Shown here: piece by piece, positions 18,721 through 48,547 of the stretch
How positions within the stretch are numbered: the first letter of the stretch is position 1
How the letters are laid out: the number at the start of each line of letters is the position of its first letter
Source: Planctomycetota bacterium
GTDB taxonomy: Bacteria; Planctomycetota; UBA1135; UBA2386
Direction: 5' to 3'
Assembly (NCBI GenBank): GCA_020638655.1
Contig: JACKIC010000011.1
Location: forward strand, 40,890-104,889
Length of the DNA: 64,000 nt
The notes under the pieces: model-generated
What the model was told of the DNA's origin: nothing
The model's input: only the letters and a program-made list of their open reading frames with translations
The model's database searches: none
Translations under genes and position numbers: made by a program

Positions 18721-18798
18721 TTCGCCCGAAGCAGTCGTTCGTCGCCAGTCCTGTCGCAGTCCCACCGTCCGAACTGAATCCACCCGCCGAAGCCTCCG

Positions 18799-22584: not shown

Positions 22585-22616
22585 CGCGGCCGGCGCGCCT
22601 GCATGATGCCACCCTC

Positions 22617-23963
22617 GTGGGTGACCCAAGCAAGCGCGACCTCGTCTCGATCGAAGACCTAAGCACCGAGGAGATCCTCGAGCTGTTCCAGCACGCCGAC
22701 GAGTTCCGCGCCAACCTCAGCGACTGGTCCGACGTCTGTCGCGGCGCGATCATGGCGACGCTGTTCTTCGAGCCCAGCACGCGCACGCGGTTGTCGTTCG
22801 AGTCGGCGATGCTGCGCCTCGGCGGCGGCGTGATCAGCGCCGCCGACAAGGAGAGCACGAGCCGCGCCAAGGGCGAGTCGCTCGCCGACACCGTGCGCGT
22901 GGTGGGGGGCAGCTACGCCGACATCCTGGTCGTGCGCCACCCCGAGGACGGCGCGGCGCGCGTCGCGGCGCGCTACGCGCGGGTGCCGGTGATCAACGGC
23001 GGCGACGGCGCGCACGAACACCCGACGCAGACGCTGTGCGACCTGTACACGCTGTGGAAGGAGAAGGGGCGGCTCGAAGGGCTCGAGGTCGTGCTCTGCG
23101 GCGACCTGCGCTACTCGCGCACGATCCACTCGTTCTGCTACGCGCTGGCGCGGTTCGGGGCCAACATCGTGACGATGCCGTACGCCGGCTTCGAACTGCC
23201 CGACTACGTGCTGCACCGGTTGACGCGCGACTACGGCGTGCAGACGGTCGCGGCCTCGGTCGCCGACCTGCCGGGGCTGGCGGGCAGCAGCAACGCCGCG
23301 GCCTACCTGACGGCGAGCAAGCCGCACCAGCTGGCGCTGTTCACGAGTCTGACGCGCTTCGAGGTCAACCGCATCGACGCGATCTACATGACCCGCGCGC
23401 AGCGCGAACGGCACGCCGGCGAGGATACGGCCAACTACCCGCGCCTGGGGCGCAACACGCTGGGGGTTGAGGCGGCGCGCGACGCGCGCGTGATGCACCC
23501 ACTGCCGCGCGTCGACGAGATCGACTACGACGTCGACGACGACCCGCGCTCGATCTACTTCCGTCAGGCGGAGCTCGGTGTGCCGATGCGCATGGCGCTG
23601 ATGGCGTTCCTGCTGGGCAAGATCCAGCTGCGGGCGCGGCCGCCGGCCGCGACCTCGGTCGAGCCCGGGATCGCCGGTGGCGCCGGGCTGCGCTGCCGCA
23701 ACGAGCGCTGCATCACCAACAACGAGGGCGTGCGCTACCTGCAGCGCGACTTCCGTCTGCGCGCCGAGGAGTCGCCGCCGATGCTGGCCTGCGCTTACTG
23801 CGAACGCGAGATCGAGGCGCGTTTCGTCGCCCAGGAGAGCACCCGGCTGTTCCACCCGCATGCCGCGCCGGCGGTTCAGGCGATCGAGATCGCCAAGCGG
23901 ATCTACTTCGAGTCGGAAGCCCAGGCGTTGGCGGCCGGGTTCCAGCCCGCTGCCACGGCGTGA
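22617..23963 (+). CDS. pyrB: aspartate carbamoyltransferase catalytic chain fused to a PyrI-type zinc domain plus an extra tail
   Basis: In-frame GTG at 22617. 'FFEPSTRTRLSFE', 'HEHPTQ' and 'HPLPR' are ATCase motifs. The C-terminal 'LRCRNERCITNNE...LACAYCERE' is a 4-Cys PyrI Zn domain. Confidence 0.8.
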   Translation: MGDPSKRDLVSIEDLSTEEILELFQHADEFRANLSDWSDVCRGAIMATLFFEPSTRTRLSFESAMLRLGGGVISAADKESTSRAKGESLADTVRVVGGSYADILVVRHPEDGAARVAARYARVPVINGGDGAHEHPTQTLCDLYTLWKEKGRLEGLEVVLCGDLRYSRTIHSFCYALARFGANIVTMPYAGFELPDYVLHRLTRDYGVQTVAASVADLPGLAGSSNAAAYLTASKPHQLALFTSLTRFEVNRIDAIYMTRAQRERHAGEDTANYPRLGRNTLGVEAARDARVMHPLPRVDEIDYDVDDDPRSIYFRQAELGVPMRMALMAFLLGKIQLRARPPAATSVEPGIAGGAGLRCRNERCITNNEGVRYLQRDFRLRAEESPPMLACAYCEREIEARFVAQESTRLFHPHAAPAVQAIEIAKRIYFESEAQALAAGFQPAATA

Positions 23964-24396
23964 GTCGCCCCCGATTGGCGCATCTCCCTGCTGTCTCGTG
24001 CGATATCGCACCGCGGGGCCGCGCAGCGCCGGCCCCATGGCGGCTTCCCCGCCGCTATCATGTGCCTGTAACCTCGTTGCCGAGAGAGTCTTGTGCCCTC
24101 TTGCCCTGCGGGGGGGCGACGGCATGATGTTTGATGCTCCGCCCTACAGTCCCCCCTCCATGGGGAGTCGAGTCGTCTCCCCCGACGCCTCGCCCCGTGT
24201 TTCGATGTACGTTTCGCTGGTCCCTCTCGTTGCAACGATCGACGCCGCCATCATTCCGGGCGGGCGCGCGACCCCGTTGCATCTCGAGGTCCTCAGCATG
24301 ACCGCTCCGTCGTGCGTCGTCGCGCACGGCTCCGGATCCTGTCGATCCGCAGCCGCGCGCGGCGCCGCCAACGAACTTCAGACCTAGTCGAGGATC

Positions 24397-27300
24397 ATGG
24401 CATTCAATCCCCGCGAATCCCGTTCGCACGACGTCCTGCAACCTGCCCGCGTGAGCTCTCGCCGCGCGGCGACCGTTGCGGTGCTCGCGGCTGCATTGGC
24501 CTTCCCAGCCTGTAGCGGCAGTGGTGGTGGTTCGACGGGCGGGGCCACCCCCGGCACCGCGCACGCCGAACTGCAGCGCATCGAGTTCGGCCGCCTCGCC
24601 GACGTCTACGGCTATCAGGTGACTCCGGAAGGTCAGTCGATCGCGCTGTTCGCGCGCGACGTGCTGATCGGTCCGGACATCGAAGACGAGCGCGGCACCA
24701 ACGAGGTCAAGCGCGACGACGAGATCCTCTTCGACTTCATCGGCTCGGATCCGGACACGCTGCAGCCGCGCCTGTTCATCCCGCGCGACATGACGAGCAA
24801 CGCGTTCAAGACCGCGTTCGAGCGCCTCGACGACCAGGTCCGCGAAGTCACGCCGATGGTCTTCGGCACGAGCGGCCCGGGCCGCCCGTTCGGCGTGGTG
24901 CCGCGCAATGCGGCGATCCGGCTGGTGTTCTCGGGCGACCTCGGCGTCGACGACGCCTTCTTCGTCAATCGCGACGCCAACGGTCAGGTGACCGGGCTGC
25001 GCAACACCGAGGCGGTGCAGTTGCTGCAGATCGTCGGCGACCCGACGCAGCTCGGCGGCTTCTCCCCGGTCCCGGCGCGCATCGTCGTCGGTGCCCGCAC
25101 GCTGATCCTCGACCCGGTGCTGCTCGGCACCGAGGGCCAGCAGTTCCAGACCGCGAACAACGCGGCGGGCCTGCCGGCGTCCCCGGACCAGGTCGGCGCC
25201 AACATCCGCGTCGCGCTGGCACTCGAAGGCCCGCTGTCGATGCCGAGCCTGCGTGAGCCCACGACCACCGGTCTGCGCGGCATCAACAACAGCGGCCGCG
25301 CCGCGATCGTGCGCGACTTCCGCTCGGGCAACTCGAACGACAACTCGGCCGACATCTCGCGCGGCTTCGTCCGCGACGCGCTGCCGCTGCGCATCGTCGG
25401 CGAGATCGTCATGTATCTCGAGGCCGTCGATTCGGTGAACGAGTTCACGCAGGAGATCACGGTCTACAAGAACGGCGTCAGCCACGAGATCGACCGCGGC
25501 GACGTCTTCCGCATCGTCAGCGACAGCTCGGGCATCCCGTTCGGCGCGGCCGAGGTCGTGGTCGACCCCGATGACGACCAGGGGCAGCCGGACGTGCAGC
25601 ACGTGCGCGTGCGCATCCGGCGCCTGGAAGGGCTCGAGAACCTCGATCCCCGCAACATCCCGGGTTACCCGAGCAATGTCGCGCAGCGCGAGCCCTGGCT
25701 CGTCGAGAACGCGCCGAAGGCGATCTGCGTCGCCGAGTTCCGCGCCGGCACCGGCCCGAACAACGCGACGCCCCCCGGCGACGGTGACAACCCCGAGGTC
25801 TTCATCTCGTTCACGCCGGAGCCGCTGCCCAACCTGGACGGGTCCAAGCCCGACCCCAACGAGTTCGTTTCGCCCTACGCGGGTGCGGTGGTGCGCTTCA
25901 CCAAGCCGGTCGACATGTCGACCGTGAAGTGGGCCGACACGTTCTTCTTCGCGATGCGCGACCTGACCAGCCAGTCGAGCATCGATGACTTCATCGCCCA
26001 TGTGCCGAACAACAACAACGGCCAGGGCATGGATCCGGCGCAGTTCAACGCGGCCAAGTTCCGTACGCCCTACCTGGTGACGGCGCGCGTGTTCGACGAG
26101 GACGGCTCGCAGACCGCGCTGCGCCTGCAGCCGACGAGCGGCTTCTTCCTCAACGACGCGATGCGCAATCCGGCGCCGAACACGGATTTCCGCTTCTTCC
26201 TGCACCTGATCGCCGACTCGGCCGAGGGCGGCATCCTCGACCTCGCCGGCAACCGCGTCGACCTGCAGGGCACCACTGCGGCGCTCGGCAACGACGTCGT
26301 GATCCCGTTCACGGTCGACACGCGCATGAACGGCGCCCAGCCGTTCTTCCCCGACAACGTCTCGATCAACATCGTGCGCCGCTTCGCCGATCGCGACGAG
26401 GACGCGATGCCTTCGTACTTCCAGCCTTCGGAAGTGCAGGCTCCGGGCACCCCGCCGACCGCGGCGAGCTACCCGCTCGAGGACCTGTTCGGCGGCTTCG
26501 TCTACATCGACGGCAAGCTGCAGGCGCGCCCGACCAGCCGCGTCCGCGTCGTCGCCGACAACCTCAACCAGGCGCCCGTGGGGGCGCAGGGCACGGTGCT
26601 GCAGTGGTGTCCGCCGTCGGTGTCGGGTGAAGGTCAGGTGGCCTCCAACTCGGCCACGCAGGTGGTCAACGCCGGCATCCAGAACCCCCTCAACCCCTAC
26701 GGCTGTCGTCTGCAGACGCTGTGGCGCGAGGTCGACCTGAGCCTGTCGCGCAGCGATCCGTTCGACTTCAACCTCGACATCGAGCAGATGTACTGGGCGC
26801 CCTACACGGGCACGACGCTCGTGTTCGACGAGTTCGACCGCGCCAGCCTGTTCCTCGGCCACTCCGAGTTCCGCCCGGCGCCGTGCGTCGGTGACTTCAG
26901 CTCGCTGCCGTCGCTGCCGAATTCGGGCCTGCGCACGGGCTTCCAGAAGAACTTCGTCTGGAACCCCGAGCCGACGGGCGGTGGTGCGACGATCGAGTCG
27001 CAGCCGAGCCCGCACCCGGCCTACGTCGACGCGCCGCTGACGATCGACCCGTCGACGATCGTCTACGAGGTCAACCAGGTGAACCGGTTCCTGCCGCTGC
27101 CGACGTTCCAGAAGCCGTACTTCGTCTATCGCGACGAGACGATGGTGGAGCAGGGCAACGACGCCGGCACCGGCTCGGACGTCACCCCGGGCACCTACAA
27201 CCCATACATCCTGTCGCCGTTCGAGCAGGGCCAGGGCCGTCGCTGGGTCGATCTCGACGCCGGCGTCACCTTCGTCAACTCGTTCTGGAACGACGCGCCC

Positions 27301-28332
27301 AACCGGCAGATCGCCACCACGTCGAGCGCTGACGCCTTCACGGGCGGCCTCGTCGGCAACGTCGCGCTGCCGCTGCTGGCCGACTTCTGGGCCTACTGCG
27401 ACTCGTCCGAGCTGCCTGCCGGCAACGGCTACACGGCGCTCGGCGTGAACGGTTGGCAGGTCTCGGTCACCGTGCAGTCGAGCCCGGTGCCGAACTTCCG
27501 CATCGTGTCGGCCGGCCGGCCACCGAGCCCGAGCGGTCCGGCGCAGTGCATCGGTCCGGGCAGCTCGCAGTGGAACAGCGCCTCGGGTGGCTGGACGCCG
27601 GGTGGCTCCACCAACCCGACCGCGACCGCCAACGCCGACAACACGCTCTACTGGATCATGATGGACGTGCTCAAGCGTCAGAGCGTGATCACCAACGGCT
27701 TCCTCGACATCAACAACCCCAACCGCGTGCCGGAAGGGTACTCCGACCCGCGCCTGGGCCCGTTCTATCTGGCCGGTGGTGTGAGCACGCGACCCAACGA
27801 CGTCGTGCCGGTGTTCGGCTACGAGTTCGACCCGCCGCTGTCGAGCCTGCCTGGCGGCACCTCGGTGGTGCCGCAGTTCCGCGCTGCGGGACCGGTCGAT
27901 GGCACGCCGTGGTACTGGCAGAAGTGGATCTCCACCGCGAACGCGCTGTTCCCGGCGGATCCCTACAACCAGCAGGACGCGCGCAACCAGCTCAAGCCGA
28001 CCGCCGACAACTTCCCGCTCGATCCCTACAAGGCCGGCGACGCCCACATCCGCAAGTGGGACTCGCGACCGATCCCGGGCACGTCGACGGCGCGCAACTG
28101 GTGGACCTACTTCTACAACCGCACGGTCACCAGCTACGTGTCGGACCCCAACCAGCTCGTCGATCCCGCCTACACGCTGCAGTTCGCGGGCCCGAACGAG
28201 ACGTTCACCCCGGCGGACGTGCGCTACGTCAACTGGCGGTTCGTGACCACCAACAACACCGACGCGCAGCCGCCGGTCAGCCCGGTGATCGAGACCTTCG
28301 CCCTGTCGTACCGCTTCCAGCGCGTGCAGTAG
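24397..28332 (+). CDS. giant predicted lipoprotein A (family 1), function unknown
   Basis: 1311 aa with RBS GAGGA at -9. Signal peptide and lipobox 'LAAALAFPAC' are followed by 'SGSGGGS'. Ig-like (SbsA/Big_5-style) segments carry 'ILDLAGN'. It is a clear paralogue of C. Confidence 0.85.
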   Translation: MAFNPRESRSHDVLQPARVSSRRAATVAVLAAALAFPACSGSGGGSTGGATPGTAHAELQRIEFGRLADVYGYQVTPEGQSIALFARDVLIGPDIEDERGTNEVKRDDEILFDFIGSDPDTLQPRLFIPRDMTSNAFKTAFERLDDQVREVTPMVFGTSGPGRPFGVVPRNAAIRLVFSGDLGVDDAFFVNRDANGQVTGLRNTEAVQLLQIVGDPTQLGGFSPVPARIVVGARTLILDPVLLGTEGQQFQTANNAAGLPASPDQVGANIRVALALEGPLSMPSLREPTTTGLRGINNSGRAAIVRDFRSGNSNDNSADISRGFVRDALPLRIVGEIVMYLEAVDSVNEFTQEITVYKNGVSHEIDRGDVFRIVSDSSGIPFGAAEVVVDPDDDQGQPDVQHVRVRIRRLEGLENLDPRNIPGYPSNVAQREPWLVENAPKAICVAEFRAGTGPNNATPPGDGDNPEVFISFTPEPLPNLDGSKPDPNEFVSPYAGAVVRFTKPVDMSTVKWADTFFFAMRDLTSQSSIDDFIAHVPNNNNGQGMDPAQFNAAKFRTPYLVTARVFDEDGSQTALRLQPTSGFFLNDAMRNPAPNTDFRFFLHLIADSAEGGILDLAGNRVDLQGTTAALGNDVVIPFTVDTRMNGAQPFFPDNVSINIVRRFADRDEDAMPSYFQPSEVQAPGTPPTAASYPLEDLFGGFVYIDGKLQARPTSRVRVVADNLNQAPVGAQGTVLQWCPPSVSGEGQVASNSATQVVNAGIQNPLNPYGCRLQTLWREVDLSLSRSDPFDFNLDIEQMYWAPYTGTTLVFDEFDRASLFLGHSEFRPAPCVGDFSSLPSLPNSGLRTGFQKNFVWNPEPTGGGATIESQPSPHPAYVDAPLTIDPSTIVYEVNQVNRFLPLPTFQKPYFVYRDETMVEQGNDAGTGSDVTPGTYNPYILSPFEQGQGRRWVDLDAGVTFVNSFWNDAPNRQIATTSSADAFTGGLVGNVALPLLADFWAYCDSSELPAGNGYTALGVNGWQVSVTVQSSPVPNFRIVSAGRPPSPSGPAQCIGPGSSQWNSASGGWTPGGSTNPTATANADNTLYWIMMDVLKRQSVITNGFLDINNPNRVPEGYSDPRLGPFYLAGGVSTRPNDVVPVFGYEFDPPLSSLPGGTSVVPQFRAAGPVDGTPWYWQKWISTANALFPADPYNQQDARNQLKPTADNFPLDPYKAGDAHIRKWDSRPIPGTSTARNWWTYFYNRTVTSYVSDPNQLVDPAYTLQFAGPNETFTPADVRYVNWRFVTTNNTDAQPPVSPVIETFALSYRFQRVQ

Positions 28333-28350
28333 GCGCTCGCTCGCCCGAGA

Positions 28351-28402
28351 GACCGCCCGGCCATTCCCCGGGCCGGCGGTCGCCAACCGCTCTTTTCCTC
28401 TC
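28351..28402 (+). terminator. imperfect GC hairpin plus T-rich tract after gene A
   Basis: 'gaccgcccggccattccccgggccggcggtc' forms an interrupted stem and is followed by 'gccaaccgctcttttcctct'. Confidence 0.4.
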
Positions 28403-28558
28403 CCCTCCCCTGTCTCGGCTGGTCGTGCCCATGGCGTGGCCGGTTCCCCTGGACCCGACAATCTCCCCCTCAGAGGTCGTGCCCAGGGGGTAGACTCCTG
28501 CCGGCCCGCGCCCTCGCGGGTCTGCATCCAGATCTCGAGCCCTGATCCCCAGAGTGTT

Positions 28559-28579
28559 TGGCGGAAGTCACTTCCGCCA
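28559..28579. promoter_or_regulatory. perfect 10-1-10 palindrome upstream of gene B
   Basis: TGGCGGAAGT-c-ACTTCCGCCA lies 34 nt upstream of the B start codon. A second small hairpin, gccct-agcg-agggc, lies at 28588-28601. Confidence 0.4.
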
Positions 28580-28612
28580 GGCAAGACGCCCTAGCGAGGG
28601 CGCATTCGCACC

Positions 28613-31600
28613 ATGAATCGAGTGAATCATGCCCGGCTGTTCTCCCTGGCCGTCCTGAGCGCCCTCGTCGGCTGTTCGGGCGGTGGCTCCACGACCGGCT
28701 CCTTGCAGTCCGGTGGGGGGTTCGTCGTGTTGCAGACCGAGCCGCTCAACAACGCTCGGCTCTACCTCAACGACCCGATCAGCATCGACTTCACCAGGAA
28801 GGTGGACCTGTCGTCGGTCAACCTGAACACGTTCTCGTTCCAGGTGCTCGACCAGACCGGGACGGCGGTGTTCGAGCCGGTCGCGGGTGACTTCGCCCTG
28901 GCCACGAGCCCGGGCGACACCGACGTCGGCCGCCGGCTGCAGTTCGTGCCGCGCTTCCCGACCAACAACACCTTCGACAACGGCGGGTTCCGCCCGGGCC
29001 GCACCTACATCGTGCAGCTGGTCGGTGGCAATCAGTTGAACGGCACGGTCATCCGCGACCAGGGTGGCAAGGGGCTGAGCCAGGCGTTCTCGTTCCGCTG
29101 CCAGACCGCCGAGGGCTCGACGCCGAACCAGCTGTTCCGCAACACGGTGCCCGGCGGTCCGCGCCGCGCGGCGCTCGAGATCTCGCCGACTCCGGACGCG
29201 TCGGGCGTCTCCCTGAACAAGCTCGGCTCGCCGCCCGTGGAGGTCCGCCTGGTCTTCGATCAGGCCCTCAACCCGAACAGCGACAACGTGCCGACCGCGG
29301 TGCAGACGAACCCGCTGCTGCGCAGCGCCAACGCGCGCGGCCGCGTCTTCCTCGAGTACGACGACCCCGAGCGCGGCGTCAACACGTGGATCCCCTCCGA
29401 CGTCGAGCTCGAGAGCAACGGCCTCGATGGCTCGACCCTGGTGCTGCGTCCCGTCGGCGTGCTGCCGAACAACGCGACCGTGCGCGTCATCGTCGAGAGC
29501 ACGCTCGAGGACATCTCGGGTGAGTCGAACGTCTCCAACGCGGCCTACGAGCGCATCTTCGGCACCTTCCAGACCAAGCGTTCCTACGAACAGCAGTTCG
29601 ATGCGCTGGTCAACGACTTCCAGACCGCCGCGTCGGTCGACTTCGAAGCCCCGTTCTCCGAGCCCGTGGCCGAGGTCGGCCCCGGCTACATCAAGGCGGG
29701 CTTCGCCTTCGAAGGCACGCAGACGACGATCGAGTACGAGCCGACGCTGCGCGACACCATCCTGAACACCGACTTCACGCAGGTCGTGCCGAAGGTCGGC
29801 ACGCCCTACAACGTCTCGGGCGGCGTCTTCAACTTCAAGAACGTCAAGATCCCGGCGGGCGTCAAGGTCCAGGGGCAGGGCACCAACCCGATGGTGTTCC
29901 TGGTCTCCGGCTCGTTCGAGATCGAAGGCGAACTGTCGGTGCGCGGCGGCGACGGCACGCGCGTCAACTCCTCGGGGACCGCCTACCTGCCCAAGGCGGG
30001 CGGCGTCGGTGTGTGCGCCGGCGGTGACGGCGGCGACGGTTCGCCCAGCGCGACCCAGCGCGACCTGCAGGGCGGCACCGGCAAGGGGCCGCGCCAGGTG
30101 ACTGCCGGAGGCGGCGTCGGCGGCCGCCTGGCCTGCACCGCAGGCTGCATCCGCGGTTCGGGTGGTGGCGGTGGCTCGCTCGCCACGCAGGGTGACCCCA
30201 ACTACAAGCAGAAGACGATCGCTGCTGGCGCCGGTCCCGGCAACCCGCCGAACCCGCTGCCGATTTTCCAGCAGCAGGTTGGTATCGGCGGCAATGGCTG
30301 TGACGGCAGCGCCGGCACGGTGACCCGCACGCTGACCGGTGGCATCGCCGGCCCGATCGTGTTCGGCGACTCGCGCAACGACAACAACTTCTGGGGCTCG
30401 GCGATCAACGTCAACCGCAACCTGCGCATCACCGGCGAGCTGTCGCTGCCGATCGGCGGTGGCGGTGGTGGCGGCGGTGGCGACCTTTCCTACAACGGCA
30501 CCTGCACCGTCGAGGACGTCAACTTCCAGAACGACAGCAGCGGCGGCGGTGGTGGCGGCGGTGGCGGTGTGCTCATCGTCAAGGCGCTCGGCCCGATCAT
30601 CATCACCGAGTCCGGCCGCGTAACGGCGGACGGCGGCCATGGTGGCGGTGGTGAGCAGGGCGGTTCGTCGACCCGCGGCGGCGGCGGTGGTGGCGGCGCC
30701 GGCGGCATGGTCGTGCTGATGTCGGCGACTCGCATCGAGATCAACGCCCACGGCTCCAACGGCCTCTACACCTACGCGCAGAACAACTACGACTTCTCGG
30801 TCTCGGCGGACGGTGGCGTCTGCCGCACCGAGGAGAACAGCTCGCCGCGCGTGGTCAGCAAGTACCCGGCGAGCGGCCTGGCTGTGCTCGCGGGCTCGAG
30901 CTACGACGCCAAGCCGCTGGGTGGCTTCGGCGGCATGGGCATCGTGCAGCTGATGGCGCCCCCTGGCGACAACAGCGACAACTCGAACACGGTGCTCGAC
31001 GACAACATCCGTGTCTACCGCAACGGTCTCGAACTGACCGGCACGTCCACGCCGACCAAGCAGTCGATCCTGGCCTGGCGCGGCTTCCCGAACGCGCAGG
31101 GCCAGTTCGTCGACGACTTCGGCACGCCGACCAACATCGGCGACGACGAGGGCGACATCCGTCCCGCGCCGCTGCTCATGCCGGTGCCGTTCAGCAGCCA
31201 GACGCGTCTGCGCTCGAAGTGGCTGGACACCGGCGCCTCGCTGCGCCGCGCGCTGCTCGCCGACGACGGCCTGCCGCGCGGCATCGTCGAGGCGGGCGGT
31301 GCTCTCGCCGGCCCGACCTACCTGTTCGACGGCACCGATCCGGCCACGGGCTACGCGGTGTTCAACACCGCGGGTGACCGCGGCGAGAACGCGCAGGCCG
31401 TGTATCCCGCGGTCGGGCCGCAGACGGGCATCCTCAGCGTCGACAGCAACGCGACCTTCCAGGGTCGGCCGGCCTACCGCGTCGAACTGGACGCCGCGAC
31501 GCTCGGCGACGTGGTCGACCTCTACACCCAGTACGAAGCCGAGATGCTCGATGCCGCCGGCGACGTTCTGTATCGCAAGGCCGACGGGTCGGTGACCACG

Positions 31601-32074
31601 AGCTTCGTCGAGGGACTCGAGAAGGTCAGCTTCCGCATCTACTCGCACACGAACCGCGTGCTGACCCTCGCGACCGAAGCCGGGACGATCCCGGTCGAAG
31701 CCGCCAAGGTGCAGCTGCGCGCCAAGTTCTTCAAGTTCGTCACCAACGGGCGCGAAGGCCTCGGCGGCACCTACCCCGCGAGCGTCGGCCAGAGCCGCGT
31801 GCCGCTGTCGAACGTGCGCATCGGCTTCGCCTTCCACCAGGACCCGGCGAATCCTTCCGCACAGCGTTATCCGGCCCAGGCCGGCAGCTATGTCTACGAC
31901 CTGAACGACCCGGTCGTGAAGGAAGACATCCGTCAGCTCGGTGCGAGCTTCGTGCAGTGGGACATCTTCTTCGATTGCGCCTTCAAGAGCCTGCCCTCCG
32001 ACACGCCCCCGGCGTTCGGTCCGGGCTCGCCGCTGCCCGAACTGCACTTCCTCCGCCTCCCGTTCCGCTTCTGA
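28613..32074 (+). CDS. giant predicted lipoprotein B (family 2) with Ig-like N-terminus and poly-Gly beta-helix-like modules
   Basis: 1153 aa. Lipobox 'LSALVGC' is followed by 'SGGGS', then 'NDPISIDFTRKVDLSSVNLNTFSFQV'. Three runs of 7-9 consecutive Gly occur. The protein ends 'LHFLRLPFRF'. Confidence 0.85.
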   Translation: MNRVNHARLFSLAVLSALVGCSGGGSTTGSLQSGGGFVVLQTEPLNNARLYLNDPISIDFTRKVDLSSVNLNTFSFQVLDQTGTAVFEPVAGDFALATSPGDTDVGRRLQFVPRFPTNNTFDNGGFRPGRTYIVQLVGGNQLNGTVIRDQGGKGLSQAFSFRCQTAEGSTPNQLFRNTVPGGPRRAALEISPTPDASGVSLNKLGSPPVEVRLVFDQALNPNSDNVPTAVQTNPLLRSANARGRVFLEYDDPERGVNTWIPSDVELESNGLDGSTLVLRPVGVLPNNATVRVIVESTLEDISGESNVSNAAYERIFGTFQTKRSYEQQFDALVNDFQTAASVDFEAPFSEPVAEVGPGYIKAGFAFEGTQTTIEYEPTLRDTILNTDFTQVVPKVGTPYNVSGGVFNFKNVKIPAGVKVQGQGTNPMVFLVSGSFEIEGELSVRGGDGTRVNSSGTAYLPKAGGVGVCAGGDGGDGSPSATQRDLQGGTGKGPRQVTAGGGVGGRLACTAGCIRGSGGGGGSLATQGDPNYKQKTIAAGAGPGNPPNPLPIFQQQVGIGGNGCDGSAGTVTRTLTGGIAGPIVFGDSRNDNNFWGSAINVNRNLRITGELSLPIGGGGGGGGGDLSYNGTCTVEDVNFQNDSSGGGGGGGGGVLIVKALGPIIITESGRVTADGGHGGGGEQGGSSTRGGGGGGGAGGMVVLMSATRIEINAHGSNGLYTYAQNNYDFSVSADGGVCRTEENSSPRVVSKYPASGLAVLAGSSYDAKPLGGFGGMGIVQLMAPPGDNSDNSNTVLDDNIRVYRNGLELTGTSTPTKQSILAWRGFPNAQGQFVDDFGTPTNIGDDEGDIRPAPLLMPVPFSSQTRLRSKWLDTGASLRRALLADDGLPRGIVEAGGALAGPTYLFDGTDPATGYAVFNTAGDRGENAQAVYPAVGPQTGILSVDSNATFQGRPAYRVELDAATLGDVVDLYTQYEAEMLDAAGDVLYRKADGSVTTSFVEGLEKVSFRIYSHTNRVLTLATEAGTIPVEAAKVQLRAKFFKFVTNGREGLGGTYPASVGQSRVPLSNVRIGFAFHQDPANPSAQRYPAQAGSYVYDLNDPVVKEDIRQLGASFVQWDIFFDCAFKSLPSDTPPAFGPGSPLPELHFLRLPFRF
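30455..30707 (+). repeat. GGN-rich low-complexity coding segment (three poly-Gly tracts) inside gene B
   Basis: The tracts at 30455-30481, 30541-30567 and 30676-30707 encode G9, G9 and 'GGGGGGGAGG'. Each is followed by a hydrophobic strand ('VLIVKA', 'MVVLMSA'). Confidence 0.85.
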
Positions 32075-32269
32075 TCCGATCCGCGGCCTCAAACGCCGTT
32101 GCCAGCGAACGCTCGGCAGCGGCTGACGATGCCGCTCTCCAACTACCGATACCGGTCGTAACCGCCCTTTCGAGCGCGTCGCGACCTCTGACCCAAGCAC
32201 GAGATTCCCACACCACGACTGCTGCCGACGACCACGCGTCGCCGACACGATGACCTGGGGCACACTGAC

Positions 32270-35200
32270 ATGAAGCAACCCACGTTCCGATCCCGTCAGT
32301 TCGGTAGCCGCGCGCTCCCATTCGCGCTGGCGCTGGTGGCGGCCACTGCCTGTGGCGGGCCCAAGAGTGTCGGCTCACTCAGCCAGGACGCCGATCGTCC
32401 GACGCTGCTGAGCGTCCAACTGGGTCGCCTGGTCGACGTCTATTCCTACCAGCGCATCGACCCGACCAACGGCGACCGTCGCGATCGCTTCAATCGCCGC
32501 CTGACGTTGGTCGCCGAGAACCTGGTCATCAACCCCAACATCGAGTCGCAGTCGTTGTTCGACGCGGCCGGTGAGGAGCTGCCGGGCGCGAACTTCGAGT
32601 TCCGCACCTTCAGCAAGTCGGTCGGCCACGAGGAGCTCGTGATCCTGTGGGACGATCGCGCCGGGCCCGAGGCCGAGCGTTACCAGGCGGCGCTGCAGAT
32701 CGCCCAGGCGGGGCTGACCGAGCTGGCCCCGTCCTACCGCAACCAGAACACGCAGACGCGCCCGATCCCGATCGTGCCGCGCAACGCCGCGATCAAGCTG
32801 AACTTCAGCAGCCCGGTCAAGGCCGACGAGGCCTTCTTCGGGGTCAACCCGTCGGCGATCCAGCTGCTCGAGTTCAAGGGTGACCCGGCGGTCGTCGATC
32901 CGGTCAACGCGTTCCGCATCCTGCCCTATCGCCCGATCCCGCAGGGCTCGACGATCGTGCTGGACACCACCATCCTCGGTGGCGAAGGCGCCAACGGCCT
33001 GACCGTCGCCGGTCTGCCGGCGTCGTCCGACAACGTCACCGCGAACATCCGCGTGGCGATCCCCGTGCGCGGCGCGGTCGCGCCGTCGTTCTACGTCCGC
33101 GAGGACGCCGTCGCCGAGCTCAACGGCGTCGACAGCGCCGGGCGCAACTCGGTGATCCGCGACTTCCGTTCGGGCAACCTCAACGACGGCGTCGCCGGCC
33201 GCCTGCGCGAGTCCGAGCCGCCGATGATCGTCGGCAGCTTGCCGATGGGCATCACCGAGATCGACACGGTCAACAACGTCATCACGATCAACAAGCGCCT
33301 GCACTTCGTGCCGGTGCGCGGCCGCTTCCCGTTCGTCGACGGCCCGCTCGAGCAGAGTGGCATCCCCGCCGGTCCGTTCTCGGTGCCGATCTCGCGGCCG
33401 CTGCGCACGGGCGACATCCTGACGCAGACGCTGCAGGTGCAGATGCCGGACGGCTCGATCGAGTCGGTCGAGCTGCGCGCCGAGATCCTGCACAACCTCG
33501 AGGTCGGCACCGTCATCGGTGACCAGAACCTGCCGCGCCTCGGCCGGGTCGAGAACGGTCAGGGCGGTTCGGATCAGGGTGAGCGCCTGTCGGTCGTGCG
33601 CGTTCGCGTCGCCTCGCTCGAGGCCGGTCGCGACTCCCTCGGTCGCATGCACTCGTTCGAAGCCAGCAGCCTGCCCAACGGCCGCGACTGCGTGCTGCGG
33701 GCCCGCTACTACGACGAAGTCGCCTACGTCGGCAGCACGACCGAGTTCGTCAGCGATCGCGATTGGCGCCACGAGTTCGTGCGCATCGACCCGACCCCGT
33801 CGGGCGCGGTGCAGCCCGCCACGCAGGTGTCGCCGAATGCTTCGATCGCGGTCGAGTTCACCAAGCCGCTGGACCTCGATCAGGTCGACAACACCGACAA
33901 CTTCCTGGTCACCAACACCTCGATCCTGACCGAGTCCTTCGCGGTCCAGATGGGCGACGCCAAGCGCGCGACCGCGCGCATCGTGCCGACCCGCCTGACC
34001 GACCTGGCCGGTGACGGCACCGTGCTGCGTCTGCAGCCGCCGATGGGCTTCTTCCACAACACGGGCACGCCCGAGACCTACGCGGTGCACGTGCGCCTGG
34101 GTGGGGCCGGTGTGCTCGACCTCGCCGGCAACGCCGTGGACATCTTCGGCGACCTCGCCAATCCGTCGGACAGCTGGTCGGTCGACTTCTCGCTCGATGC
34201 GCAGGCCCTGACCAACCGGGTCGGCTGGCACACCTATACGATGACGAGCGAGGACGAAGACGGCTCGCTGCCGGGCTCGGTCGACATGTTCGGCCAGTAC
34301 CGTCTGCAGGACGGCCGCCTGTTCGCCGCCGCCGGTGTGCGCTTCAGCCGCACCGCCGACAACCAGAACCTGGCGACGATCAGCCGCATCCACCGCGGCG
34401 AGTGCTGGGATCCGGACTTCGATCCGACCGTCGGCAGCCCGCAGGGCGTGCCCGCGGCGCCCCTGGACGGCGCCGGTCTGCCGCACCCCGGTCTGCTCTA
34501 CTGGCAGCCGCGCATGTTCGATCAGATCGCGCCGCCGAACGTGCCGTCGGTCTACGAGTACTACCAGCAGCTGCCGCAGAACGTCGGCCGCGTGGTCGAG
34601 CCGCATCACCCCAACGGCTCGCGCCTGCAGATGCGCTACCTCGAGGACGACTTCTCGCTGAGCTACCGCCAGCCGTCGGAGTTCGGTCTCGACGTCGAGC
34701 AGATGTACTGGTCGCCCTTCAACGACGAGACCGTCTACTACGACGTGTTCGATCGCTACACGATGTCGCTCGCGCACACCGCGCGTCGCGCCGACGTGCG
34801 CTTCACGCTGATCCCCGGCGACTCGAGCGCGATGCCGCCGGTGCCGCCGGGCTGCCTGTTCAACTGCCCGAGCATGAACAGCGGCCTGTCGAGCGTGTTC
34901 GCTGACAACGTCCTGCCGGGCACCCAGGAGGTGCCGGTGTTCGAGGACAAGGTCTACAGCATCAACCCGAACCAGGCCTTCCGCTCGCCGCTGAACGTCA
35001 AGTACGTGCCCTACCCGCGCTTCGACCGCTCCTACACCTGGCGCGACTCGCGCCTGGTCACGGTCGACAACGCCGGCAACGTGATCGGCCTCGGCGGCGC
35101 CGAGCAGCCCGGTGCGCCGCAGCCCAACAACGACACCACGGCGAACATCGATTCGCCCTGGATCGCCAGCGTGCCGGATCCCGACTTCGTCAACGTCGGC

Positions 35201-36220
35201 GGTTCGGTGTGGGTCCAGGACCCGGCCGACTTCGTCGGCGACGCGATGCACGACCACGACCCGATCGCCCTGCCGCTGCTGGTCGACTTCAAGGTCTTCC
35301 CGGACAGCGCCGCCAACGGCATCGCCGCGGGCGTCAACAACTTCCAGGTCGCCATGATGGGCCCGCCCAGCTACGGCTTCCCGGGCATCCCCGGCGGCTA
35401 CTACGACCGCCAGGGTGCGGGTTGCGGCGGCACGCCGCCGTGGCCGCGCTCGCGCGTCCAGGCGACCGGTGGTGAGGACATCATCTCGGGCGCGACGATC
35501 CTGATCGACCCGGCCAATCAGCTGATGGCCCAGTCGAGCACGCTCAAGGACGCCGGCCTCGGCAACGCCACGCGTGCCCTGTTCAGCGCCCCTCCGGGTG
35601 ACGGCATGGTGCACTGGGCGCAGGCCGACTTCGTGCGCAAGGTCTCGACCGTGACGATCGGCTTCTTCGACTCGCTGCAGCCGCAGCGCGCGCAGCTGGT
35701 CACGTTCGACGGCTCGGGCACGGCCTCGATCAACGCGACCAACGGCTTCCCGGATCTGCTGACGCTCGATCCGACCCTGCGCATCCGCGACCTCGTCGTG
35801 CAGCTCGACCCGCCGCAGAGCCGGCAGCCGGCTGGCACCTCGGTGGTCGTCGAGATCCGCGGCGCCGAGGACTTCGACAACTCGGGCAATCTCTACAACC
35901 CGAGCTTCGACCAGGCGTCCCAGACCCCGGACGACACGTTCGACGGTCGCGGCAACCTGCTCAACGTCAACTACGCCTGCGAGGCCTACCGCTACTCGCA
36001 GTCGAACCAGCCGGGCAACATCCCGCGCATCAACGCCACGCAGCTGACCCGCTACGTGACCGAGGACCAGCTGGCGCTGATCCGCAGCCCGGCCACGGGC
36101 CTGCTGCCGCGCTTCCTGAACCTGCGCCTGGTGATGACCAACAATGTCGACGTGTCGCCGGCGCTGTCGCCGTCGCTGCGCAGCATGAGCGTGGTCTACA
36201 AGCTCGAGCCGGGGCAGTAA
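32270..36220 (+). CDS. giant predicted lipoprotein C (family 1), paralogue of A
   Basis: 1316 aa with lipobox 'LVAATAC'. Blocks shared with A include 'VPRNAAIKLNFS', 'AGLPASSDNVTANIRVA', 'IRDFRSGNLND', 'LDVEQMYWSP' and 'VLDLAGNAVD'. Confidence 0.85.
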   Translation: MKQPTFRSRQFGSRALPFALALVAATACGGPKSVGSLSQDADRPTLLSVQLGRLVDVYSYQRIDPTNGDRRDRFNRRLTLVAENLVINPNIESQSLFDAAGEELPGANFEFRTFSKSVGHEELVILWDDRAGPEAERYQAALQIAQAGLTELAPSYRNQNTQTRPIPIVPRNAAIKLNFSSPVKADEAFFGVNPSAIQLLEFKGDPAVVDPVNAFRILPYRPIPQGSTIVLDTTILGGEGANGLTVAGLPASSDNVTANIRVAIPVRGAVAPSFYVREDAVAELNGVDSAGRNSVIRDFRSGNLNDGVAGRLRESEPPMIVGSLPMGITEIDTVNNVITINKRLHFVPVRGRFPFVDGPLEQSGIPAGPFSVPISRPLRTGDILTQTLQVQMPDGSIESVELRAEILHNLEVGTVIGDQNLPRLGRVENGQGGSDQGERLSVVRVRVASLEAGRDSLGRMHSFEASSLPNGRDCVLRARYYDEVAYVGSTTEFVSDRDWRHEFVRIDPTPSGAVQPATQVSPNASIAVEFTKPLDLDQVDNTDNFLVTNTSILTESFAVQMGDAKRATARIVPTRLTDLAGDGTVLRLQPPMGFFHNTGTPETYAVHVRLGGAGVLDLAGNAVDIFGDLANPSDSWSVDFSLDAQALTNRVGWHTYTMTSEDEDGSLPGSVDMFGQYRLQDGRLFAAAGVRFSRTADNQNLATISRIHRGECWDPDFDPTVGSPQGVPAAPLDGAGLPHPGLLYWQPRMFDQIAPPNVPSVYEYYQQLPQNVGRVVEPHHPNGSRLQMRYLEDDFSLSYRQPSEFGLDVEQMYWSPFNDETVYYDVFDRYTMSLAHTARRADVRFTLIPGDSSAMPPVPPGCLFNCPSMNSGLSSVFADNVLPGTQEVPVFEDKVYSINPNQAFRSPLNVKYVPYPRFDRSYTWRDSRLVTVDNAGNVIGLGGAEQPGAPQPNNDTTANIDSPWIASVPDPDFVNVGGSVWVQDPADFVGDAMHDHDPIALPLLVDFKVFPDSAANGIAAGVNNFQVAMMGPPSYGFPGIPGGYYDRQGAGCGGTPPWPRSRVQATGGEDIISGATILIDPANQLMAQSSTLKDAGLGNATRALFSAPPGDGMVHWAQADFVRKVSTVTIGFFDSLQPQRAQLVTFDGSGTASINATNGFPDLLTLDPTLRIRDLVVQLDPPQSRQPAGTSVVVEIRGAEDFDNSGNLYNPSFDQASQTPDDTFDGRGNLLNVNYACEAYRYSQSNQPGNIPRINATQLTRYVTEDQLALIRSPATGLLPRFLNLRLVMTNNVDVSPALSPSLRSMSVVYKLEPGQ

Positions 36221-36267
36221 TGCCCGCAGCTGCGGTCCCCGGTGGGCCGCAGCACAACGGATCTGCG

Positions 36268-36308
36268 CGCGGCCGACTGCCTTGGGGCAGTCGGCCGCGT
36301 TCGTTTCC
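36268..36308 (+). terminator. strong intrinsic terminator after gene C
   Basis: Perfect 14-bp stem cgcggccgactgcc/ggcagtcggccgcg with loop ttgg, followed by ttcgtttcc. Confidence 0.8.
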
Positions 36309-36384
36309 AGGGCGTGTTCGCGAATGCGGAGCACTGTCGCTGCCGTGGCGTTAGCGTGTGCCCGGTTCGCCGTCGTCGTCTACG

Positions 36385-38250
36385 ATGGGCCCGCTGCAGT
36401 CCATGTCCTGTCCCCGTGCCATCCCCGCGCTGCTCGTGCCCCTGGGCCTCGCCCTCGCCGCGGGGTGCCACCGGTCGGCGCCCCCGGCCTTCGAGGTGAT
36501 GCACACCTCGCCCGTGCTGGGCGGTGAAGCCGGGCCGCTGCTGCTCAACGACACCATCACGGTCTACTTCTCGGCGCCCGTGTCGGCGCTCAGCGTGACG
36601 TCGGACTCGGTGCACGTCGTCGACGCGCGCGGCAACCAGGTGCCGGGCCAGCTGCGGGTGGGTGAGAACTGGGTGACCTTCGCGCCGCGACCGCCGCTCA
36701 CGGCGGGCCTCGTGGACGGTTCGTTCCAGCCGGGGGAAGCCTACGAACTGCGCCTGGCGGGGTATCCCCGTCCCGACGCGATCCGCGCGGTCGATGGCAG
36801 GCGGCTGTCGATCGGCCACGTGCTGCCGTTCCGGGCGGCGGACGTCGACCATCGCGAGGGGGGGCTGCCGGCACCGCTGCGACCGCTGGCCTCGGACCTG
36901 CCGCTGGTGCTGCGCGCCGCCGAGGCGCCGCAGGCGCTGCCCGTCGATGCCGCGGTCCTGCGTCTGCACTTCTCGTCGCCGCTGCTGCCGACCTCGGTGA
37001 CCCCGTCGGCGTTGGTGATCCAATCGCTGCGCGACATGGCCACCCTGACTCCGCGGCGGGTCAGGGCGGTGACCTCTGCGGTCGACCTCAACCCGGGCAG
37101 CAGCGTCGAGGTCGAACTCGGCGCGACCCCGGCCCGCGAGGATGGTGGATTCCTCGCGCTGCAGCCCGGTGACCTGATCAGCGTGTCGCTGCGCATGGAC
37201 GCGGATGGCCTGCGGGACTACCAGGGCAACACCGTGTTGCCGGCGCCGCCGCAGTTCTGGACGGTCGTGCCCGGGGCGACCGTGGCGCTGCTCGAACTCC
37301 CTGGCGCGGCGGAGTCGTTCGTCGACGAGGGCAGCCTCGAGCCGGGCTTCGAGGTGCGCGGCGGCGTGGTGCGGCCGCGCGTGCGCGTCGAGGCGGGCGA
37401 CGGCAGCCTGGGCGCGTTCCGACCGCAGCAGGACACCGTGCTGCGGCCCGGGGAACCATTCGACCGCGGTGACGGCGTCCAGGTCGCGAGTCGCGACGGA
37501 CGGTTCCCGTTCCGCCTCATCGAGGTACCCAGGGGCGTCACGGTGACGCTCGATTGTCGGGGCGGGCCGGTGCAGCTGACCGCTCTGGGCTCGGTGTCGA
37601 TCCTGGGCGAACTGGCGCTGCGTGGCGCGGCCGTGCCGCTCGCCGAACGGCAGCTCGCCCCCGTTCCCGCGGCCAGCCTGTTCGACCTCGGCGCGCCGCT
37701 GCTGCTCGCCGCCGGCGACGTGCACCTGTCGGGCCGCGTCGTCAGCGACGCCCCGGCCGAAGGCGACGCCACGCCGTTCGTGGTCGCCGCCGCCGGGCAC
37801 GTGCACCTGGGCGGCGAACTGCCGTTCCGCACGGTCCTGGCGGTGGAAGCGGCCCACGCGGGCGGCTCCGGGCCGGCGGTGCACGGTCCGCGCGGCCAGA
37901 CCCTGCTGCGCTCGGTCGAGTTCACCTACGGCCTGGCGCCGGGCGCCACCTGCGAGGCGCGCGGGTTCAGCGCCTGGCAGCAGCTGCCGGAAGGGCGCAT
38001 CGGCGGCGTCGTGCAGGTGCGCGACGCCGACGCCGAGCTGCGACTGGCGTGGCAGTCGACGCCGCCCGACGCGATCGTCACCGACGCGCCGGACCTGACG
38101 CCCGGGCGCACGGGCCGTCTGCAGACGTTGTTCGACGGGGAGCCCGTCACGATCGCCGAGCGCGCGTTCGTGCGCTTCGCCTTCGAGGCGAGCCTGCGCC
38201 ACGACCGTCGGCTGCCGTCGTTGCGCATGCTGCGCCTCGTCGCTCGCTGA
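36385..38250 (+). CDS. predicted lipoprotein D (shorter family-2 relative)
   Basis: ATG at 36385; alternative starts are GTG 36358 and ATG 36403. Lipobox 'LALAAGC'. 'NDTITVYFSAPVSALSVTSDSVHVVD' and 'FRLIEVPRGVTVTLD..ILGELALRG' align with B and E. Confidence 0.75.
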   Translation: MGPLQSMSCPRAIPALLVPLGLALAAGCHRSAPPAFEVMHTSPVLGGEAGPLLLNDTITVYFSAPVSALSVTSDSVHVVDARGNQVPGQLRVGENWVTFAPRPPLTAGLVDGSFQPGEAYELRLAGYPRPDAIRAVDGRRLSIGHVLPFRAADVDHREGGLPAPLRPLASDLPLVLRAAEAPQALPVDAAVLRLHFSSPLLPTSVTPSALVIQSLRDMATLTPRRVRAVTSAVDLNPGSSVEVELGATPAREDGGFLALQPGDLISVSLRMDADGLRDYQGNTVLPAPPQFWTVVPGATVALLELPGAAESFVDEGSLEPGFEVRGGVVRPRVRVEAGDGSLGAFRPQQDTVLRPGEPFDRGDGVQVASRDGRFPFRLIEVPRGVTVTLDCRGGPVQLTALGSVSILGELALRGAAVPLAERQLAPVPAASLFDLGAPLLLAAGDVHLSGRVVSDAPAEGDATPFVVAAAGHVHLGGELPFRTVLAVEAAHAGGSGPAVHGPRGQTLLRSVEFTYGLAPGATCEARGFSAWQQLPEGRIGGVVQVRDADAELRLAWQSTPPDAIVTDAPDLTPGRTGRLQTLFDGEPVTIAERAFVRFAFEASLRHDRRLPSLRMLRLVAR

Positions 38251-38477: not shown

Positions 38478-39455
38478 ATGTCGACGGTTGTTTTCGAGGT
38501 GGGGGCAGCCCTGCTCGGGGCCTGCGTAGGGTCCTTCCTCAACGTCGTCATCTACCGCCTGCCGCAGGAAGATCCCGCCAGACGATCGCTCGGCGGTCGT
38601 TCGCACTGCCCGCACTGCGGCGCGCAGATCCGCTGGTTCGACAATCTGCCCGTGCTCGGCTGGGTGCTGCTGCGCGGGCGCGGCCGCTGCTGCGGGCAGC
38701 GCATCGCGTTCCGCTATCCGCTCGTCGAACTGCTCACCGCGCTGCTGTTCCTCGCGGTGACGCTGTGGTCGCCGTGGAACCTGCCGATCACGATCGACGA
38801 CCTCGGCGGCCTGCACGTCGACACTGCGCGGGCGGTCGGCTACGGCCTGCACCTGCTGTTCGTCTCGGTGCTGGTCGCGTGCACGTTCATCGACTTCGAC
38901 AAGCAGATCCTGCCCGACGCGATGACCAAGCCGGGCATGGCGATCGGCGTGCTCGCCGGCATCTACCCGGGCATCGCCGGGCCGATCTCGCGCGATGCGT
39001 CGACGCCCTACGCGCTGCGCACGCTGCTCGCGAGCGTCGTCGGCCTGGCGGTCGGCGCCGGGGTCACGTGGGGCATCCGCTGGCTCGGCTCGCGCGTCTT
39101 CGGCAAGGAGGCGATGGGGCTCGGCGACGTCAAGTTCCTCGGCATGATCGGCGCGTTCCTCGGCTGGCAGGGCGCGCTGCTCACCCTGTTCCTGGGCTGC
39201 GTGGTCGGCGCCGTGGTCGGCGGTCTCGCGGCGCTGCGCGGCGGGCTGGGGCTGCGCATCCCGTTCGGTCCGTACCTCGCGCTGGGCGCGTTGATCGCGC
39301 TGTTCGCGCAGGACCACGTCTACGTCTTCTTGTTCGACACATGGCCGGAGTGGCAGCGGCGCAACCCGTCGTCACAGTTCCTGCTGCTCGGCATGGCCGT
39401 GTTGTCGTTGTTCGCGTTGTTCGTGCTCGTGCGCCGTGGGCGCCGCGCAGGATGA
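38478..39455 (+). CDS. pilD: prepilin peptidase (A24 family)
   Basis: 'GSFLNVVIYRLP', 'CPHCGAQIRWFDNLPVLGW', 'GRCCGQRI', 'FIDFD' and 'GLGDVKFLGMIGAFLGW' are present. Confidence 0.9.
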   Translation: MSTVVFEVGAALLGACVGSFLNVVIYRLPQEDPARRSLGGRSHCPHCGAQIRWFDNLPVLGWVLLRGRGRCCGQRIAFRYPLVELLTALLFLAVTLWSPWNLPITIDDLGGLHVDTARAVGYGLHLLFVSVLVACTFIDFDKQILPDAMTKPGMAIGVLAGIYPGIAGPISRDASTPYALRTLLASVVGLAVGAGVTWGIRWLGSRVFGKEAMGLGDVKFLGMIGAFLGWQGALLTLFLGCVVGAVVGGLAALRGGLGLRIPFGPYLALGALIALFAQDHVYVFLFDTWPEWQRRNPSSQFLLLGMAVLSLFALFVLVRRGRRAG

Positions 39456-48409: not shown

Positions 48410-48456
48410 TGCACGGCGGCACCTGATGCGCCCCCTGGGCGCATCGTGCCAACGCC

Positions 48457-48502: not shown

Positions 48503-48547
48503 AGGCCTCGCTCAGGAGCGGGGGGCGATCGCGCCGATAGCATCGCC

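Follow-up and report, generated by a model that had tools for sequence, protein, structure and literature searches.

Gene content of the cassette

The window analysed here comprises 64,000 nucleotides of contig JACKIC010000011.1 (assembly GCA_020638655.1, positions 40,890 to 104,889) from a Planctomycetota bacterium. Four consecutive genes on its forward strand, at positions 24397-38250, encode the predicted lipoproteins A, B, C and D (Table 1). These genes, referred to below as the cassette, were assigned to two families, fam1 (A and C) and fam2 (B and D).

The G+C content of the window is about 70%, and third-position GC (GC3) marks one frame per gene; values of 0.91-0.94 identified the frames of A to D as coding. 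The open reading frames (ORFs) had the lengths of 1311, 1153 and 1316 amino acids (aa) that an earlier sequence-only reading had listed for A, B and C, and its figure of about 621 aa for D was close to the product of either candidate start. Translation from ATG 36403, the start used for the database protein of this contig, gives 615 aa, and translation from the alternative GTG at 36358 gives 630 aa. Each of the peptide motifs cited in that reading was found in its stated gene.

A and C had been described as collinear paralogues, and BLASTP indeed aligned them over their full length with 27% identity (E=1e-76). B and D matched at E=6e-8, and profile-profile comparison of their families with hhalign yielded a probability of 98.8% (E=4.8e-17), the alignment covering only residues 5-419 of D and 20-469 of B. 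The architecture claimed to be common to B and D was thus retained for two N-terminal immunoglobulin-like (Ig-like) domains and the first turns of a beta-solenoid, but not beyond: D lacks the Gly-rich centre of B, and its C-terminal ~200 aa could not be aligned to B. The division into two families was borne out by alignment, and a kinship between fam1 and fam2 was rejected, as hhalign showed the two families to be unrelated.

Duplication history

The alternating order of the two families in the window had been taken as a sign that a two-gene module was duplicated. In two much more distant genomes (L086 and L087), the slot between pyrBI and pilD-OmpA-EF-G holds fam1, fam1, a B-like fam2 gene and a D-like fam2 gene, in that order, with B-like and D-like forms already separate. 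In a neighbour-joining tree of fam1 (100 bootstraps), support was 100% for each of three groups: the A clade (including solo paralogues), the C clade, and a group of the four distant sequences, in which both copies of each genome paired together.

The split of B from D predates the duplications within fam1, and these look either specific to their lineages or homogenised by gene conversion. Alternation of the two families in the window is therefore not evidence for the copying of a fam1-fam2 module. Such copying agrees with neither the distant gene orders nor the fam1 tree; A/C and B/D did not arise in a single duplication event, and module duplication was rejected.

Additional fam1 copies were observed elsewhere in several genomes, solo or in tandem (up to four), without a fam2 partner. 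Conserved solo copies adjoin a DUF1731 epimerase at two loci (L055 and L080), and the neighbourhoods of solo paralogues contain mixed housekeeping genes that gave no functional clue. In this genome fam2 is also a wider paralogous family: the product of a gene outside the cassette (60134-63376) matched the fam2 hidden Markov model at E=1e-18, a better match than that of D.

Lipoprotein signature

A lipoprotein signature was scored as an N-terminal signal peptide ending in [LVI][ASTVI][GAS]C. B, C and D carry canonical lipoboxes (ALVGC, AATAC and LAAGC, respectively); that of A reads FPAC, with an atypical Pro at position -2, and the consensus of its family is AAC. Lipobox-like N-termini were found among the homologues of A (90/118), B (114/120), C (27/30) and D (100/120). 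In an alignment of 36 sequences spanning the fam1 superfamily, the lipobox Cys was one of only 17 invariant positions.

In homologues of A and B, the lipobox is usually trailed by a Gly/Ser-rich tether. Mature A to C are acidic (pI 4.6-4.9) with masses of 118-140 kDa, and no further transmembrane-like hydrophobic segment was found in mature A to D. The earlier prediction that all four are lipoproteins was therefore upheld by a signature kept at family level. A to D are predicted from sequence to be lipidated; since none of the four window proteins has Asp at position +2, the outer membrane is their most likely location.

Domain architecture and database searches

In A, the signal peptide, Cys39 and the Gly/Ser tether are followed by an Ig-like region, a small beta-barrel, a Big_5-like Ig domain and a beta-rich C-terminal region of ~600 aa. 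B consists of two Ig-like (Big_5) domains, a beta-solenoid broken by poly-Gly runs (9, 9 and 7 G) and C-terminal beta-sandwich domains, and its C-terminus (...LRLPFRF) is nearly invariant.

The Pfam profile Big_5 (PF13205, gathering score 23.6 bits) was exceeded by B (26.3 bits) and D (27.6 bits), in agreement with the generic SbsA/Big_5-style Ig segments noted earlier. C scored 17.6 bits, below the threshold, and no Pfam Big_5 match was obtained for A; among the 36 fam1 superfamily members, 9 matched at E<=0.1, some of them possibly below the gathering score. Apart from Big_5, a Pfam scan of A to D and these 36 members returned nothing, as did an NCBIfam scan of A to D and PDB sequence searches with single sequences and with family profiles.

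An AlphaFold2 (AF2) model of B had a predicted local distance difference test score (pLDDT) of 79 and a predicted template modelling score (pTM) of 0.70. It placed Ig-like domains at about residues 36-166 and 180-322, a predicted beta-solenoid from about 350 with low-confidence poly-Gly interruptions and further rungs at 650-712, and confidently predicted beta-sandwich domains from about 860 to the C-terminus, with no barrel reported. The model of A (residues 112-1311; pLDDT 73.5, pTM 0.71) was beta-rich, with a confidently predicted small barrel and Ig-like domain preceding the ~600-residue C-terminal region.

Foldseek searches of the PDB with the A model gave nothing meaningful, the nearest being a marginal FNR-like beta-barrel at E ~0.01; a match to a phage baseplate (probability 0.12) was dismissed as spurious. 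A search of BFVD, performed with the A model only, returned nothing below 1e-3. In the databases searched, fam1 is a new protein family without known relatives by sequence or by fold; its large C-terminal domain deserves a structure.

With the B model, Foldseek retrieved from the PDB only tandem-Ig matches (LdtMt2/5, Fabs and SbsC), with template modelling (TM) scores below 0.1 on the query. The best of these were the BIg domains of mycobacterial LdtMt2/LdtMt5 (PDB 6d5a and 5dcc; E=4e-6 to 1e-4). Both these proteins and B are membrane-tethered with two Ig-like domains as a stalk; B, however, has no YkuD catalytic domain (Pfam), and the likeness is restricted to the stalk (TM-score on query 0.08-0.09).

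The tandem Ig domains were also aligned to the Geobacillus S-layer protein SbsC (PDB 2ra1 and 4uj6; E ~6e-4 to 1e-3). The likeness of the cassette proteins to Big_5/SbsA-SbsC proteins concerns a generic Ig module that makes up ~10-25% of each protein. In contrast to the SbsC type, they are predicted diderm lipoproteins with neither an SLH domain nor one that binds secondary cell wall polymer (SCWP), they possess large extra domains without relatives, and they are far more conserved than usual S-layer proteins.

Systems that might have explained the cassette, namely S-layers, PilY1, cargo of the type IX secretion system (T9SS) and RHS/YD proteins, were looked for by profile and structure, and none was found. 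In A to D, Pfam and NCBIfam gave no SLH or other S-layer profile, no PilY1 beta-propeller (PF05567; Foldseek with the A and B models showed no propeller either), no secretin domain (PF00263), no T9SS C-terminal sorting domain (Por_Secre_tail/TIGR04183 type, at E<=1) and no autotransporter or Pmp profile, the GGA(I/L/V) and FxxN repeat motifs of Pmp not being explicitly counted. A to D also differ from PilY1/PilC tip adhesins, which are not lipidated, in their lipoboxes. YD repeats (PF05593/TIGR01643) and an RHS core were likewise without a match in A to D.

B is comparable to beta-helical surface proteins of the Planctomycetes-Verrucomicrobia-Chlamydiae (PVC) group and others, such as chlamydial Pmp proteins and autotransporter passengers, in its predicted beta-solenoid with Gly-rich turns, and it likewise comes from a PVC bacterium. 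B differs from them in having no beta-barrel and no Pmp repeat profile, and a predicted N-terminal lipid anchor instead.

The beta-solenoid predicted in B, together with many invariant Asp, Glu, Arg and His residues in the C-terminal region of fam1, would suit lipid-anchored enzymes or substrate-binding proteins for capture or degradation of polymers, for example a polysaccharide-active beta-helix, with fam1 and fam2 as catalytic or binding partners. Planctomycetota are rich in polymer-degrading surface proteins. This explanation is considered rather improbable: no glycoside hydrolase, lyase, peptidase or carbohydrate-binding module profile was matched at any threshold tried, the only structural match to such enzymes was a marginal GH110 fragment (E=0.14), and the cassette occupies a fixed position in the core genome, not a substrate-utilisation locus. 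The earlier statement that no catalytic motif is visible also stood, as A to D contain neither HExxH nor a P-loop and matched no described family.

Conservation of the cassette in relatives

More than 100 full-length homologues were recovered for each of A, B and D, all labelled hypothetical or Ig-like, and those with an organism name came nearly all from Planctomycetota metagenome-assembled genomes. An exhaustive profile search extended fam1 to 590 clusters at 50% identity, including a distant group of ~1000-1170-aa proteins whose named members are again Planctomycetota.

Synteny was assessed in 79 loci from species-representative genomes, to which the window proteins were mapped by tblastn. 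The order X414 (a PDZ protein)-coaX-GTPase-pyrBI-A-B-C-D(-pilD) was observed in ~45 of these genomes, across which the identity of A ranged from 45 to 91%. The order D-pilD-OmpA-EF-G-pilT-pilB-pilC-TPR-pilin was unchanged in three further genomes. With the distant loci L086-L088 included, the set A to D and its linkage to pilD are conserved in relatives.

Median identities were computed over the 35 loci containing the whole block. They were 89% for rpoC, 81% for pyrBI, 66% for A, and 61% for both B and C, followed by coaX (56%), the GTPase (49%), X414 (48%) and D (46%). A exceeded coaX in 33/35 loci and the GTPase in 35/35. The cassette is under strong purifying selection, and the set has been deeply conserved beside pilD.

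Fast-evolving adhesins and typical S-layer proteins are a poor fit to A to C, whose median identities exceed those of coaX and the GTPase. Classical adhesins or fibre subunits, that is, variable surface proteins for attachment or aggregation, had been among the possibilities raised earlier; Ig-like domains, a Gly-rich solenoid, large size, the extra fam1 and fam2-like paralogues and the large aggregates formed by cultured relatives (10.1101/817700) would agree with them. In the usual variable sense this explanation is held to be very improbable, given the very strong full-length conservation as a single syntenic copy and the lack of repeat-number variation; Pfam and NCBIfam, moreover, gave no adhesin domain of a known kind, no sorting signal and no barrel of the autotransporter type.

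Pilus neighbourhood

The earlier reading had put the cassette immediately ahead of a type IV pilus cluster. This was accurate for pilD, which follows D directly wherever sequence downstream of D was available; pilT, pilB, pilC, the TPR gene and the pilin gene, however, are separated from pilD by the genes for an OmpA-domain lipoprotein and EF-G. The OmpA-domain lipoprotein gene comes after pilD in every locus reaching that far. In L086 and L087, the D-like gene overlaps the start of pilD by 1 or 4 nt, which suggests translational coupling of the two genes in these lineages.

Upstream, X414 always precedes coaX-GTPase-pyrBI-A in the clade and stands directly after pilT in distant members. Its PDZ match in the window is weak, and its homologue in L086 has a confident PDZ_6 match (E<=1e-5). 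The architecture might be GspC/PilP-like, which is noted as a lead only.

The pyrB-pyrI fusion was kept in all relatives examined. The str operon rpsL-rpsG-fusA is split in the window, with ~21 kb between rpsG (18346-19272) and the EF-G gene (40389-42422), and the inserted stretch consists of the PDZ protein, coaX, GTPase, pyrBI, A to D, pilD and the OmpA lipoprotein. Ahead of the block, more distant relatives have rplU-obg-pilT in place of rpoC-rpsL-rpsG.

Downstream of the pilin gene (48446-52613), a GT2 glycosyltransferase, a GT1-like segment (~49987-50592, strand unclear) and a 699-aa TPR protein are encoded, which may form a module for glycosylation of pilin or the envelope, in keeping with the protein-glycosylation module named in the earlier reading. 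The module is not universal, because TatD directly adjoins PilA in the cultured strain Pla133.

Gene-order correspondence with the published locus of cultured strains

A preprint on Saltatorellota (bioRxiv 10.1101/817700, supplementary tables) covers three strains in culture, namely Saltatorellus ferox Poly30, Engelhardtia mirabilis Pla133 and Rohdeia mirabilis Pla163, whose GC content is 67-70.5%. Unlike other Planctomycetes, these strains encode both PilB and PilT (10.1101/817700). Their pilus locus starts with TatD-PilA-PilC-PilB-PilU-(EF-G)-OmpA-PilD, PilD being followed by 'hypothetical proteins' (3 in Poly30, 7 in Pla133), then by aspartate carbamoyltransferase, a 50S-binding GTPase, type III pantothenate kinase and a PDZ protein, and it ends with PilT-Obg-L27-L21-Rne-PilQ-PilO-hyp-PilM (10.1101/817700).

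This published order is that of the window and of loci L040-L088, the more distant of which also have rplU-obg-pilT upstream. The hypothetical proteins in the slot resemble the cassette in gene order on both sides, in GC content and in the presence of PilB and PilT; they differ from it in number, 3 or 7 instead of 4, the comparison being one of position only. From gene order, and not from sequence, we infer that they correspond to the cassette and that the window belongs to the Saltatorellus clade in the broad sense.

The claim of novelty was accordingly narrowed: the two families are undescribed, but by gene order their genes already stand in the published table of the pilus locus as 'hypothetical protein', and the preprint gives them neither function nor discussion (10.1101/817700). 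A lipoprotein anchor, Ig-like domains and a beta-solenoid are all well-known elements, and the cassette of four genes has been described so far only under that label.

Within the Planctomycetota, the Saltatorellus clade branches early, and shape-shifting, amoeboid movement and cell fusion were reported in its cultured members; no molecular explanation for these is known, and the pilus locus was proposed as possibly involved in the unusual motility (10.1101/817700). At 13.9 kb, the cassette is one of the largest conserved, wholly unannotated coding blocks in the core genome of the clade. Cultured strains that apparently carry it exist, so that hypotheses on its role are directly testable.

Proposed role of the cassette

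We tentatively favour, at less than even confidence, the explanation that A to D are subunits of a clade-specific, lipid-anchored heteromeric envelope assembly working with the type IVa pilus and the outer envelope. Each protein would be exported and then acylated on its N-terminal Cys, and a flexible tether of Gly and Ser, which is evident in A and B, would hold it to a membrane, most likely the outer one. Big_5-type Ig-like domains would space the protein from the membrane, so that the far end could present a large beta-rich head, which in fam1 would be the fold without known relatives and in fam2 a Gly-rich beta-solenoid with beta-sandwiches. Together, A to D might form a complex that acts as an anchoring, guiding or scaffolding module, and not as variable adhesins or enzymes.

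The assembly is argued from the lipoprotein signature, the constraint on A to C, the retention of the four genes in one slot and the AF2 models, in which Ig-like stalks precede large beta-rich heads; in the cultured strains, moreover, that slot lies within the pilus locus. A role with the pilus is favoured for three further reasons. Among the other non-housekeeping genes of the interval, those in which a domain could be recognised belong to the pilus or are plausible accessories to it (PDZ, OmpA lipoprotein, TPR), D appears to be translationally coupled to pilD in distant lineages, and the cassette and PilT occur together in the clade. Accessory proteins of type IVa pili (PilF/Tgl, TsaP, PilP and PilY1) are comparable to A to D in being encoded at pilus loci and located in the envelope, some of them as lipoproteins. 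They differ in sequence and fold, to which A to D show no similarity, with no PilY1/PilC, secretin, PilP, LysM or TPR profile; A to D are also 5-10 times larger than pilotins, and a separate TPR protein is present in the locus. A function of A to D as a stand-in for a missing secretin was rejected, since cultured strains with this locus layout have annotated PilQ, PilO and PilM.

Several observations weigh against the assembly with the pilus. The same annotation of PilQ, PilO and PilM leaves no missing pilus part to be replaced. The linkage to pilus genes is real and kept in relatives, but ambiguous, because unrelated housekeeping genes (coaX, the ribosome-type GTPase, pyrBI and fusA; farther away rplU, obg and rne) share the conserved block, and the synteny may thus reflect a slowly rearranging backbone and not a shared function. 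In L088, A-B-C-D-pilD-OmpA-EF-G is present with no pilT/B/C after EF-G, and the solo and tandem fam1 paralogues stand away from both pil genes and fam2. The intergenic gaps of the cassette (137-280 bp), with conserved blocks of their own, suggest separate promoters. The codon adaptation index of A to C (0.74-0.79) is close to that of EF-G, EF-Tu and rpoBC (0.77-0.84) and not to that of coaX (0.53), which speaks for the assembly; in a 70% GC genome, however, the index largely tracks GC3 and is suggestive only. We also know of no type IV pilus machine that includes ~450 kDa of lipoprotein per set.

Some of these observations would be expected of an autonomous surface coat, either S-layer-like or an outer-envelope scaffold, that is unrelated to pili and lies near pil genes by an accident of gene order. 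Large, acidic, beta-rich proteins with Big_5/SbsA-type Ig domains would be suitable for a coat, as would a structural match that reaches SbsC, codon usage like that of highly expressed genes, and fam1 paralogue expansions and tandem arrays, which are typical of surface proteins; the housekeeping genes in the block show that synteny need not mean a common function. S-layer proteins, however, normally diverge fast, whereas A to C outdo neighbouring enzymes in conservation; no SLH or known anchoring or lattice domain was found with Pfam and NCBIfam, and the SbsC match is one of generic Ig domains. The Saltatorellota preprint includes cryo-tomography of one strain and makes no mention of an S-layer, although this is an absence of mention only (10.1101/817700). 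A coat of this kind is judged unlikely, although it deserves serious consideration.

A more far-reaching version of the pilus-linked assembly is a new, clade-defining machine in which ~450 kDa of four interlocking lipoproteins per set, built on a fold without known relatives, would couple the retractile type IVa pilus to a highly plastic outer envelope and contribute to the shape-shifting, amoeba-like surface movement, trunk formation or cell fusion reported for the Saltatorellus clade. This version is a long shot and is held to be decidedly improbable. The remaining probability belongs to something not yet imagined.

Non-coding elements and other features

The features of the window, together with the fam1 arrays of other loci, are listed in Table 1.

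Table 1. Positions of cassette genes, neighbouring genes, sequence elements and paralogues (window positions unless a locus is named)
Feature	Position	Strand	Description
A (fam1, giant predicted lipoprotein)	24397-28332	+	1311 aa; mature ~138 kDa, pI 4.6; Cys39
B (fam2, giant predicted lipoprotein)	28613-32074	+	1153 aa; Cys21; 15% Gly
C (fam1, paralogue of A)	32270-36220	+	1316 aa; Cys28
D (short fam2 relative)	36403-38250	+	615 aa from ATG 36403; Cys22
PDZ protein X414	19546-20790	+	414 aa; N-terminal hydrophobic segment; weak C-terminal PDZ (E ~0.05)
pyrB-pyrI fusion (pyrBI)	~22600-23963		Aspartate carbamoyltransferase with C-terminal PyrI_C metal-binding domain
pilD, prepilin peptidase	38478-39455	+	227 bp after D
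OmpA-domain lipoprotein	39500-40144	+	Coiled-coil region predicted by eye
EF-G	40389-42422	+	
PilT/PilU-like ATPase	42608-43699	+	
PilB	43703-45415	+	
PilC	45454-46701	+	
TPR protein	46748-47626	+	
Pilin	47723-48409	+	
Palindrome GTGCGATATCGCAC	23998-24011		Perfect, 14 nt; 35 nt after pyrBI stop; unique in window
Conserved element upstream of A	24091-24133	+	~265-305 nt upstream; TTGTG-N4-CTTGCC (24100-24105)-N17-CATGAT (24123-24128)
Two copies of GGTCGTGCCCA(T/G)GG	28421-28434, 28475-28488		A-B spacer; second copy just before conserved octamer GGTAGACT
Conserved octamer CCGATACC	32146-32153		B-C spacer
Extra fam2-like paralogue	60134-63376	+	1080 aa; Big_5; 16 Cys
Truncated ORF	63388-63999		Same N-terminal Ig block; after the 60134-63376 gene, runs off window end
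Tandem arrays of A-type fam1	L076 9716-22935; L030 1782-10016; L069 5027-13825		Four in a row in L076; some copies shortened

The pyrBI-A spacer measures 433 bp, and alignment of this intergenic region from 15 genomes revealed a conserved element upstream of A. Within it, GGCATGATGTTTG (24121-24133) is at least 80% conserved per column in the 15 genomes and unique in the window. The 24100-24128 part has a sigma-70-like -35/-10 geometry, which suggests that A has its own putative promoter and a 5' leader of ~260 nt. A sigma-54 promoter at GGCATGATGTTTG is not claimed, as the -12 GC is missing.

The core of the palindrome, GCGATATCGCACC, is kept by the majority of these 15 genomes, and the palindrome looks like an operator or a hairpin. 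The motifs that precede B (A-B spacer) and C (B-C spacer) might serve these genes as promoters or as sites for a regulator. A generic promoter scan found none, and terminator-like sites were no commoner than in shuffled sequences.

An Rfam scan returned only tRNAs. Five tRNA genes flank tuf (3773-4441 and 5923-5995) upstream of rplKAJL-rpoBC, which is an ordinary arrangement.

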